From Escherichia phage ECO26.1 3-1: DNA of 51,807 nucleotides. How positions within the stretch are numbered: the first letter of the stretch is position 1; the number at the start of each line of letters is the position of its first letter. Below the pieces are notes generated by a model. The model had not been told where the DNA came from. It did not search any database and was given only the letters and a program-made list of their open reading frames with translations. The stretch is taken from the sequence record OR844578; one strand, 5' to 3'. Below are positions 10,541-13,267 of this stretch, piece after piece. The position numbers were made by a program, and so were the translations under genes.

Positions 10541-10869
10541 CCGCAGTCACAATCATTGGCCAGGAAATTTTAACTAAATTCTTTGTTTTTAGCAGTCTAT
10601 GGTCATTAGTTCCGGCTTCAATCGGTGTAGGCATTTTAATGGTAGCAGTCATGGCTTTTATTGCTACCGGGTTGGTAATTGGTCCGTCTTGGTTGTTAGA
10701 CAAATATAACGACAGAAAATATTATAAAGAAATTGAGTTCATTGCACAAAACCAAGAACGAATTAAAAATGGACTTGAGCCTATTGAACGTAAGAAATCA
10801 TTAATAGGCGAATACCTTAAAGCTCGTAAAGAAAAAGTCTGTCCTACTCTTGAATATAAGGCTAAATGA
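10450..10869 (+). CDS. membrane protein (2 TM), start/frame ambiguous
   Basis: ORF track; TM segments; no SD before ATG 10450. Confidence 0.4.
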   Translation: MESSENVVCLFLENVNPGIGCFNYWIFAILAAVTIIGQEILTKFFVFSSLWSLVPASIGVGILMVAVMAFIATGLVIGPSWLLDKYNDRKYYKEIEFIAQNQERIKNGLEPIERKKSLIGEYLKARKEKVCPTLEYKAK

Positions 10870-11855
10870 TGAAAACAATTATGAAAGGCTACTTTGGTAG
10901 CCACCTTTATGGAACGTCTACCCCAGAATCTGACGTTGATTTTAAAGAAATTTATGTCCCTCATGCTCGTGATATCTTGACCGGTAACGTTAAAGAACAT
11001 ATGAGCAAGAACACAAATAACACATCTTCTAAGAACACAAAAGACGACGTGGACCATGAGTTGTATAGTCTCAAATATTTCTTTAAACTAGCTGCGGATG
11101 GTGAAACCGTCGCATTAGATATGCTTCACACTCCACCAAGTCTAGTAGTTAAATCTGATTTGCCTAATGTATGGAAGTATATTCAAGATAACAGGTCTCG
11201 TTTCTATACCACTAACATGAAATCTTATTTAGGGTATGTCCGTAAGCAAGCTTCTAAATACGGTGTCAAGGGTTCTCGACTGGCTGTTCTTCGTCAAGCC
11301 CTTAAACGTTCTAATGAATGGGGACAATACTTTGATAATGGTGCAGTAATTCGTTTATCACATATGAAGAATGTTCTGCCTGTAGGTGAATTTGCTTCGT
11401 GGGTTGAAACCGAAAACGAGAAAACAGGTAAGCAAACATTCTATAATCTGTTAGACCGTAAATTCCAAGATACGTTAACCAATAAAGAGTTCAATGCCAT
11501 CCTGGTTAAACTGGAAGAGAACTATGGTGAACGTGCTCGTAAGGCAGAAGCCAACGAAGGTATTGACTGGAAAGCATTGAGTCATGCATGTCGTGGTGGA
11601 CTTCAATTATTGGAAATTTACAAAACCGGCGACCTGGTTTACCCACTTCAGGATGCTCCATTTATTCTCGATGTTAAGCTTGGTAAACATACGTTTAAAA
11701 CTGTACAAGAATTCCTAGAAGATATCGTTGACCAAGTTGAACAAGCATCTGAACAAGCTGCCAAGAATGGTATGCAACAAAAAGTAGATATGAGTTTCTG
11801 GGATGATTTCCTTGAGCAAGTCTATCTCGAAAATCATAATTCTTACTATAAATAA
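10866..11855 (+). CDS. Pol-beta superfamily nucleotidyltransferase domain protein
   Basis: N-terminal GSHLYGTSTPESDVDF fits the NTase G[SG]...DxD motif; 329 aa. Confidence 0.65.
   Translation: MMKTIMKGYFGSHLYGTSTPESDVDFKEIYVPHARDILTGNVKEHMSKNTNNTSSKNTKDDVDHELYSLKYFFKLAADGETVALDMLHTPPSLVVKSDLPNVWKYIQDNRSRFYTTNMKSYLGYVRKQASKYGVKGSRLAVLRQALKRSNEWGQYFDNGAVIRLSHMKNVLPVGEFASWVETENEKTGKQTFYNLLDRKFQDTLTNKEFNAILVKLEENYGERARKAEANEGIDWKALSHACRGGLQLLEIYKTGDLVYPLQDAPFILDVKLGKHTFKTVQEFLEDIVDQVEQASEQAAKNGMQQKVDMSFWDDFLEQVYLENHNSYYK
11846..11853 (+). promoter_or_regulatory. T4-type late promoter TATAAATA
   Basis: Exact TATAAATA at end of upstream gene, 33 bp before ATG 11887. Confidence 0.45.
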
Positions 11856-11886
11856 ATAGATAAATAACCATTAACTTGAGGTAAAT

Positions 11887-12168
11887 ATGAAAAAATTAGT
11901 AATTGGTTTATTCGCAGTAATGATGGCATTCTCTGTTGGTGCTACCACAGGTGCAGCTAGCGGTAGTGCAGGAGCTGGTGGTAACCAGTCTTCTGGGCCT
12001 TCCAATGGTTCGGTAAATGCATCACATTCTCAGGGTATTGAGAACATTAAATCAAGCTATATTAATAGCACGGCCGGACAAGCAACTGAAGCATGGTCAA
12101 AGGGTCGAGTAGTTACTCGCTCCGTATTCTGTGATATGCCTAATTATGTTGCTAAGTGTGATAAGTAA
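11887..12168 (+). CDS. secreted Gly/Ser-rich protein
   Basis: Signal peptide MKKLVIGLFAVMMAFSVGA; SD GAGG. Confidence 0.55.
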   Translation: MKKLVIGLFAVMMAFSVGATTGAASGSAGAGGNQSSGPSNGSVNASHSQGIENIKSSYINSTAGQATEAWSKGRVVTRSVFCDMPNYVAKCDK

Positions 12169-12173
12169 ATGTG

Positions 12174-12189
12174 GGGACCTTCGGGTCCC
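12174..12189 (+). other. UUCG-tetraloop hairpin (gggacc-ttcg-ggtccc)
   Basis: 6-bp GC stem with TTCG loop directly after gene stop; no strong T-run. Confidence 0.4.
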
Positions 12190-12219
12190 TTTAGGGGGTT
12201 AAAATATTTTTAAAAAGTA

Positions 12220-12248
12220 GTGTACATGCTTTTAGGATATGTTATTAT
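12220..12248 (+). promoter_or_regulatory. early promoter GTGTAC-17-TATTAT
   Basis: -10 TATTAT 12243-12248 followed by agacctatc block shared with other cassettes. Confidence 0.45.
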
Positions 12249-12286
12249 AGACCTATCGAAACGAAATGAGTAAATTGGAGAATAAA

Positions 12287-13267
12287 ATGTTCAACGTTCA
12301 AATCAAAAAAGGTATCTATCGTAATAACGAAATCTCTGGTTCTTATGTTGCCACAAAGACCTGGTTCCCGGCAAAGCTTAATCCTGAATGCTCCCACTTA
12401 GGTGACGGTAAAATTTTCGTTATGATTGATGGTTCTGAACGTGGAGTATGGGTCTTCAAATCAGACATCGTAATGGAAGGAGTTGAGACATCACCGGTTG
12501 CAGTTGTTGAAAGCACTGAAGATATGAAAACTCGTATCAACAAACGCTTTAAAGTAATGAACATGATGACGAATGGCATTATCGATGGCAAAATTCGTTC
12601 ACTCATTATTTCAGGTGCAGCCGGTATTGGTAAGACGTATTCTCTGGATAAAGCACTTAATAATGCTAATGATAACGGTTTCATCAAATACAAAAGCATT
12701 AATGGTAAAATCTCTGGTATTGGCCTTTACGAACAACTTTGGCTCAACCGTGATGCAGACAGCGTTCTCTTAATCGACGACGTTGACGTATTCTCAGATA
12801 TGGACATCTTGAATCTTCTTAAAGCAGCATTAGATACTGGAGATAAACGCAAAGTTTGTTGGAGCACTGCGTCATCTTATCTCGATGATAAGGGTATTGA
12901 TAAAGAATTTGAGTTTGAAGGTGCTATCGTTTTCATTACAAACGTTGATATCGATAAAGAGTTAGAACGCGGTTCGAAACTTGCCCCACACCTTCAAGCT
13001 TTAGTATCTCGTTCAGTGTATCTCGACCTTGGAGTACACTCTAATGAAGAGATTATGGTTCGAGTTGAAGATGTAATATTATCTACTGACATGATGCAGA
13101 AACGTGGTCTGACGGATGCAGAAACGTATAAAGCATTGTCCTGGATGAAGGCTAACGTATCTCGTCTTCGCAATGTATCATTACGTACAGCTCTTTATGT
13201 AGCAGATTTTATTTCAACTGATAAAGATGGTTGGGAGGAAATCTCTGAAGTAACTTTACTGAAATAA
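12287..13267 (+). CDS. P-loop ATPase (AAA-like), function unknown
   Basis: Walker A GAAGIGKT, Walker B LLIDDVD; start ATG 12287 chosen for SD GGAG. Confidence 0.65.
   Translation: MFNVQIKKGIYRNNEISGSYVATKTWFPAKLNPECSHLGDGKIFVMIDGSERGVWVFKSDIVMEGVETSPVAVVESTEDMKTRINKRFKVMNMMTNGIIDGKIRSLIISGAAGIGKTYSLDKALNNANDNGFIKYKSINGKISGIGLYEQLWLNRDADSVLLIDDVDVFSDMDILNLLKAALDTGDKRKVCWSTASSYLDDKGIDKEFEFEGAIVFITNVDIDKELERGSKLAPHLQALVSRSVYLDLGVHSNEEIMVRVEDVILSTDMMQKRGLTDAETYKALSWMKANVSRLRNVSLRTALYVADFISTDKDGWEEISEVTLLK

Follow-up and report, generated by a model that had tools for sequence, protein, structure and literature searches.

The stretch of DNA analyzed here, hereafter the window, is a 51,807-nucleotide (51.8 kb) sequence of the T4-like (Mosigvirus) Escherichia phage ECO26.1 3-1 (record OR844578), and our subject is the two genes at positions 10866-13267, one encoding a nucleotidyltransferase (NTase) and the other an ATPase. 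The NTase open reading frame (ORF) runs from 10866 to 11855 on the plus strand and encodes 329 amino acids (aa), with the Pol-beta-type motif GSHLYGTSTPESDVDF at residues 11-26; a second ATG at 10869 would give a 328-aa product. It is followed on the same strand by a 93-aa ORF (11887-12168) and by the ATPase ORF, which ends at 13267, begins at either 12266 or 12287 (333 or 326 aa) and carries the motifs GAAGIGKT and LLIDDVD. The start at 12287 lies 7 nt downstream of a GGAG Shine-Dalgarno sequence and coincides with the T4 start, and for these two reasons we consider the 326-aa form credible. An earlier description of the locus made without database searches (the sequence-only reading) had listed these three ORFs and their motifs, and all of them are present.

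Escherichia Mosigvirus genomes, moskry and 348Ecol098PP among them, match the approximately 3.3 kb around the locus at 98-99% identity, and proteins identical to the NTase and the ATPase already exist in public databases. In annotated T4, nrdC.11 (which bears the label nucleotidyltransferase) is followed by nrdC.10, and the two lie downstream of tk-rI-mobD. The NTase is 78% identical to T4 NrdC.11 (NP_049709) and the ATPase is likewise 78% identical to T4 NrdC.10 (NP_049708); judged by these comparisons the two genes are orthologs of nrdC.11 and nrdC.10. Both are additional members of catalogued T4 gene families and the finding is, to that extent, largely ordinary. Precedent for the assignments comes from Nolan et al. 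(2006), who reported that nrdC.11 matches COG3541 NTases and that nrdC.10 has weak AAA matches (PMC1524935). The view taken in the sequence-only reading that neither is a recognized core replication gene holds; the T4 counterparts are clear orthologs, and no housekeeping role has been established experimentally for either of them.

The NTase matches the Pfam family RlaP (PF10127) with an E-value of 9.5e-13 and 48.8 bits (cutoff 23), and phrog_388, annotated as "nucleotidyltransferase", with an E-value of 6e-126. A search among 1.84 billion cluster representatives returned 3215 relatives, 743 of them at E <=1e-30, and among the matches listed these extended over nearly the full length of about 320 aa. 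Eight residues (G11, S12, D23, D25, D63, K236, H240 and R243) are invariant across 68 homologs, and the Pol-beta catalytic signature contained among them (G11-S12, D23-x-D25, D63) is also invariant in a separate set of 12 homologs. Given this invariance of the catalytic residues, the NTase is predicted to be enzymatically active. The AlphaFold2 model (predicted local distance difference test score, pLDDT, 93.8) has a Pol-beta NTase core followed by a long helical C-terminal domain. When the NrdC.11 type was compared with canonical RlaP using hhalign, the alignment was confined to the catalytic core (88 columns, E 2e-4, 47% probability), where the catalytic residues of the NTase line up with their equivalents in canonical RlaP. 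We place the NTase, from its family match and residue conservation, in a distinct long (about 330 aa) branch of the RlaP (PF10127) Pol-beta nucleotidyltransferases that is tied to RNA-repair operons.

Other identities were considered for the NTase. The sequence-only reading had left its clade to be settled among CD-NTase, MNT and other types; the RlaP profile is matched above cutoff and the CD-NTase and MNT profiles are not. We rejected CD-NTase identity, as there is neither profile nor fold similarity to that group, and we also rejected an MntA-type MNT of the MNT-HEPN type VII toxin-antitoxin systems, for which the NCBIfam MntA score is 12.9 bits against a cutoff of 60. The NTase is three times the length of MntA, and in place of a HEPN gene it has neighbors that encode a membrane protein and a secreted one. 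NCBIfam and PADLOC searches with the proteins of the locus gave nothing above cutoff, and single-protein and profile searches of PDB sequences returned nothing useful (best matches: a USP16 fragment, CTF3, and Cdc6 at E 0.085).

What is known of RlaP enzymes comes largely from a preprint by Carruthers, Fatma and Huang, in which two Pseudomonas proteins, PfRlaP and PaRlaP, added one to two nucleoside monophosphates to an RNA 3'-OH, favored Mn2+ and a mimic of broken tRNA, and did not act on DNA or proteins (PMC12776372). The same authors proposed that RlaP restores nucleotides taken by "smart" ribotoxins such as RloC, and Iyer et al. (2021) had predicted, for jumbo phages, that RlaP restores bases removed by RloC (PMC7824862). 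T4 NrdC.11 was explicitly put in the RlaP family in the 2025 preprint, in a similarity cluster other than that of the assayed enzymes (PMC12776372).

Genomic context links the long branch to RNA repair in cellular organisms. Among 78 loci of bacteria and archaea that encode full-length relatives of the NrdC.11 type (29-52% identity), a canonical 269-aa RlaP directly adjoins the NrdC.11-type NTase in 29, nearly always just downstream and with the coding ends touching or overlapping; in most of the 29 the stop codon of one gene overlaps the start codon of the other. This arrangement suggests that in bacteria the adjacent long NTase and canonical RlaP constitute a two-NTase unit. RtcB or Pnkp/Hen1 lies within 8 kb of the NTase in 15 of the 78 loci, and Ro60/TROVE also occurs. 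We observed as well that NTase-RlaP pairs are often found inside RtcB, Pnkp-Hen1 or Ro60 operons (loci L170, L175, L185, L192, L197, L218 and others, at about 8001-9800). The recurrent neighbors in 79 phage NTase loci are tk, rI, rI.-1 and tk.4. The close relative 348Ecol098PP (OR062947) encodes RNA ligase 1 (Rnl1) and PseT approximately 90 kb from its NTase gene.

A plausible scenario for the NTase is that it provides an accessory step in the classic T4 counter-defense by RNA repair, and its most likely role, in our view, is to restore nucleotides on broken tRNA before ligation. Its substrate would be the 5' half of a tRNA whose anticodon loop has been cut by a host anticodon nuclease of the base-trimming (RloC) type; the cut end would first be healed by the phage Pnkp (PseT), the NTase would then put back the lost nucleotides, and Rnl1 would seal the repaired end. 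An RlaP product bearing a 3'-OH should be chemically suited to the 5'-phosphate ligase pathway of T4, as follows from the discussion in the preprint (PMC12776372). The RNA substrate and the link to Pnkp and Rnl1 are what we infer from the homology, fold, catalytic residues and gene contexts described above. T4 tolerates deletion of the fragment nrdC.11-mobD.3 (PMC9825161), in keeping with an accessory role. Long NrdC.11-type RlaP proteins may be partners of canonical RlaP when bacteria repair RNA, and in phages they may counter base-excising anticodon nucleases on their own.

The ATPase belongs to a family of unknown function (phrog_1250, E 3e-161); its Pfam matches (AAA_22, AAA_16 and nSTAND3) are all sub-threshold, and there is a weak PHROG match to a clamp loader. 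The AlphaFold model (mean pLDDT 89.4) has an AAA+ fold. In the product of 12287-13267 (plus strand), residues 1-64 form an N-terminal beta domain of five strands, residues 77-250 the AAA+ core, in which an insertion precedes sensor 1, and residues 253-324 the helical lid. All of 40 homologs, the most distant at 52% identity, retain K116 and T117 of Walker A, D164 and D165 of Walker B, N219 of sensor 1, R242 at the end of alpha4, and R295 and R300 in the lid. The ATPase has the alpha-beta-alpha core, helical lid, Walker A and B motifs, sensor 1, arginine finger and sensor 2 of AAA+ proteins, and from sequence and model together we take the ATPase to be a divergent AAA+ protein with its hydrolysis motifs intact. 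Foldseek searches with the model gave a mixed list of AAA+ proteins (template modeling score about 0.4) and the family profile found only Cdc6 among PDB sequences (E 0.085); some distant family members exceed the PF00004 cutoff. NrdC.10-like AAA+ ORFs of about 495-544 aa were seen in large-phage contigs (L063-L071); their N-terminal extensions, some 250 aa long, match nothing in Pfam.

The one functional lead for the ATPase is its genomic company in distant relatives. The genes of divergent marine and Vibrio T4-like phages are arranged on one strand as gp32-UvsX-UvsY-(NrdA-NrdB)-...-ATPase-UvsW-like helicase, and in 17 loci the UvsW-like helicase follows within about 500 bp downstream of the ATPase; among these UvsW-linked ATPases the median pairwise identity is 43%. 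Genes for UvsX, UvsY, gp32, ribonucleotide reductase and topoisomerase are found near the ATPase in the divergent loci, and Vibrio phage K362 has the order gp41-gp45-gp44-gp62-regA-dUTPase-ATPase-x-DNA helicase-RNase H-gp55-gp47. Tentatively, and as a possibility to be entertained rather than expected, this context points to replication or recombination, not defense. The ATPase would then be an oligomer that uses ATP to act on DNA or on a protein during replication or recombination, and it might be a loader or remodeler that works with the UvsW helicase or with the UvsX/UvsY/gp32 machinery. We are more doubtful still of the joint proposition that the NrdC.10-type ATPase is a widespread and as yet unrecognized accessory factor of T4-type recombination-dependent replication and that the long RlaP has the two-NTase role in bacteria and the phage role outlined above. 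In one locus (L037) the UvsW-like helicase downstream of the ATPase (10849-13398) is 849 aa long; inserted in it is a LAGLIDADG domain, which may represent an intein or a homing endonuclease.

Both here and in T4, the NTase gene is set apart from the ATPase gene by a hairpin and an early-type promoter, and because of these intervening elements we consider the two genes to be separate transcription units, with the activity of promoter and terminator deduced from their motifs. The hairpin (GGGGACC-UUCG-GGUCCC, 12173-12190, plus strand) is GC-rich with a UUCG tetraloop, occupies the position of the T4 nrdC.11 terminator and is followed by a weak U tract; its T4 counterpart is GGGAGCC-TTCG-GGCTCCC with a T-run. 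The promoter-like site (12221-12248, plus strand) is of the early sigma-70 type, with TGTACA, a 16-nt spacing and TATTAT with TG, and lies 5' of the ATPase gene, which we presume it drives; T4 has the early promoter GTTTACA...TACTAT in the same place. A 17-nt -10/+1 box, GTTATTATAGACCTATC, occurs with at most one mismatch at four plus-strand sites (5424, 12241, 13717 and 46691) against 0.17 expected; the copies at 12241 and 13717, the two examined, each cover the start and the -10 region of an early-type promoter.

The 93-aa ORF occupies the remainder of the interval. The sequence-only reading had proposed that a late promoter follows the NTase gene, and the T4 late-promoter-like motif TATAAATA is indeed present at 11847-11854 on the plus strand, where it overlaps the stop codon of the NTase gene and lies 32 nt ahead of the 93-aa ORF. 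The motif is what speaks for its function; TATAAATA has three copies in the window, all on the plus strand, versus approximately 6.6 expected by chance, and we regard the late-promoter reading as plausible. At the equivalent site T4 carries TATAAATG with no ORF after it, and the gene is absent from T4, in which no ORF lies between nrdC.11 and nrdC.10. The 93-aa ORF has a strong ribosome-binding site, and its product has a Sec-type signal peptide, a middle rich in Gly, Ser, Ala and Asn, and two C-terminal Cys residues. It matches phrog_2243 at E 4e-38, with a weak YbgS-like match below cutoff. It is predicted to be periplasmic or secreted, in agreement with the small secreted Gly/Ser-rich protein described previously. 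The gene was found in 102 phage records, all of them Escherichia or Shigella phages of the Mosigvirus type.

Several features of the surroundings deserve mention. A membrane-protein gene (phrog_944, 10394-10869) has a stop codon that overlaps the NTase start and is split into two reading frames. The split results from a 2-nt TT expansion in a T-run near 10524-10528 relative to 348Ecol098PP, in which the gene is a single 158-aa ORF; it could reflect a pseudogene, a sequencing error or slippage. In T4 the equivalent position is taken by the homing endonuclease gene mobD. Downstream, three consecutive ORFs of about 320 aa (14339-17362) are the counterparts of T4 nrdC.5, nrdC.4 and nrdC.3; the tandem paralogy suggested by their size was rejected, as they have no mutual BLASTP similarity. 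No tRNA genes were found in the window. In GenBank phage records the nrdC.10 and nrdC.11 orthologs and their neighbors are widely labeled "thioredoxin". Neither protein has a thioredoxin domain, and the mislabel appears to have been propagated from the nrdC.x gene names.

Taken as a whole, the explanation that we think best, and probably correct, is that these are unrelated orthologs of T4 nrdC.11 and nrdC.10, the former an RlaP enzyme of RNA repair and the latter an AAA+ protein of replication or recombination, separated by an inserted cassette. The two would be separately transcribed early genes that are neighbors through inherited gene order in a plastic region, and the 93-aa secreted protein with its late-type promoter would be a lineage-specific cassette inserted between them. 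A number of observations weigh against this explanation: (i) the PF10127 match covers NTase residues 7-140 only, and the C-terminal domain cannot be aligned to canonical RlaP by hhalign, so that substrate choice, which this domain helps to set, could differ from that of canonical RlaP; (ii) the assayed RlaP enzymes belong to another sub-cluster than NrdC.11; (iii) no RNA ligase or kinase was found near the NTase in the 79 phage loci; (iv) the evidence for the role of the ATPase is its gene neighborhood, which may be ancestral synteny, and in T-even phages uvsW, uvsX and uvsY lie away from it; (v) comparison of the ATPase with the clamp loader/RFC-RarA, MoxR and STAND clades gave no clear best match; and (vi) the hairpin at 12173-12190 (-12.9 kcal/mol) is no better than shuffled sequences (z -0.72), and the promoter and terminator calls are motif-based, with activity and timing predicted from the motifs.

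The sequence-only reading had described the NTase and the ATPase as a pair, and they could conceivably form one system, such as a nucleotide signal or target modification with the ATPase as partner, sensor or effector, serving in counter-defense. Where both are present (37 loci) their order and strand are always constant, both are early-type genes in a plastic region, and early transcripts of T4 can read through terminators. Set against this are the hairpin and separate promoter between the genes, to which the late-promoter cassette is added in this phage, and the distribution of the two genes. Of 69 viral contigs bearing the ATPase, 9 have RlaP within 10 kb, as judged by tblastn and by profile hidden Markov model, all of them T-even-like, and 60 are without it; the ATPase lies downstream within 10 kb (gaps of -28 to 2269 bp) in 37 of 79 viral contigs bearing the NTase and is missing in 42, and it was found in 0 of the 78 bacterial and archaeal loci with the NrdC.11-type NTase. 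Co-occurrence is limited to T-even-like phages, and in one 183-kb contig the genes are about 40 kb apart. GenBank phage records number 1303 for the ATPase and 1509 for the NTase, with different host spectra (149 versus 285 for Klebsiella and 121 versus 59 for Vibrio). Neither a PADLOC nor a CD-NTase signal was found at the locus. A functional NTase-ATPase module was ruled out on the co-occurrence in these 69, 79 and 78 loci, and we consider a single system of any kind very improbable. The suggestion of nucleotide signaling is not supported; that of counter-defense is plausible for the NTase, where it is a published prediction that operates via RNA-end repair (PMC12776372, PMC7824862).

It is also possible that each protein has a role other than the one that we propose. 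The NTase could be a HalB-like oligonucleotide synthase (one that replenishes an oligo-dA signal and so silences a Hailong-type defense, for example) or an enzyme of the KNTase, MntA, GlnE or DrrA type that transfers nucleotides to proteins or small molecules, and two observations would be in keeping with this, namely the C-terminal domain that does not align to canonical RlaP and the small membrane-protein gene that overlaps the NTase start in this lineage. However, the assayed Pseudomonas RlaPs left DNA and proteins unmodified (PMC12776372), the bacterial NrdC.11-type genes reside in RtcB, Pnkp-Hen1 and Ro60 operons and not beside HalA-like channels, and the MntA score is far under cutoff. 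The upstream position varies (mobD in T4), no membrane-protein family stands out among the recurrent neighbors and the membrane-protein gene is frameshifted in the window; a Hailong-like pairing of NTase and membrane protein was rejected on the variable position and the frameshift. A role for the NTase outside RNA-end repair strikes us as unlikely, more so than the corresponding alternative for the ATPase, in which that protein has no connection with DNA metabolism but is a MoxR-like chaperone, a STAND-like switch or a factor for host takeover or counter-defense, with its replication neighbors explained by ancestral synteny. The weak Pfam matches to AAA_16, AAA_22 and nSTAND3, the DD-type Walker B, the location of the T-even ATPase among small accessory genes and the uninformative context in jumbo phages are all compatible with such a factor. 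Nevertheless, members of the family occur in T-even, Acinetobacter, Aeromonas, Vibrio, marine and jumbo T4-like phages (1303 records), a breadth that would be unusual for a niche counter-defense gene, and the ATPase is repeatedly found with uvsY on one side and uvsW on the other, or next to gp44/62/45; neither a VWA partner nor sensor repeats were observed, and every STAND match falls short of the cutoff. We would give an ATPase unconnected with DNA metabolism a real if minor chance.

If the NTase does restore trimmed nucleotides on cleaved tRNA, the textbook Pnkp/Rnl1 repair pathway of T4 would be completed, and it would be explained how T4-like phages could answer RloC-type nucleases, which were thought to defeat Pnkp/Rnl1 repair. 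The idea of repair by this NTase is already a published prediction; what is added here is a testable phage example and the bacterial contexts of the long sub-branch. Interest in the ATPase is more open; its AAA+ family is present in over a thousand T4-like phage genomes and is located in recombination and replication clusters in distant relatives; if it is a replication accessory factor, one of the best-studied replication systems would gain an extra component. The residual value of the locus lies in this widespread AAA+ family and in the long RlaP branch with its coupling to canonical RlaP in RNA-repair operons of bacteria.

With regard to known systems, the NTase core plus helical domain of our AlphaFold2 model resembles the published description of PfRlaP, so that the architecture may be shared, although the helical C-terminal domain gives no hhalign alignment to canonical RlaP; the NTase also differs from canonical RlaP in length, at about 330 versus 269 aa. 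HalB of the Hailong system (PDB 9dbh) is 217 aa long and 16% identical to the NTase; it is paired with the HalA channel and makes protein-primed oligo-dA, whereas the NTase has no conserved channel partner and, unlike HalB, has relatives whose bacterial contexts are RNA-repair operons. The ATPase shows no substantive difference from T4 NrdC.10, which is equally long, likewise follows nrdC.11 and has its early promoter arranged in the same manner. With AAA+ proteins in general it has in common the Walker A and B motifs, the sensor-1 Asn, the Arg at the end of alpha4 and the lid arginines, and its core and lid are shared by the MoxR proteins (NorQ, CbbQ), NtrC-type activators, RuvB, RFC and other clamp loaders, and ORC/Cdc6/DnaA.

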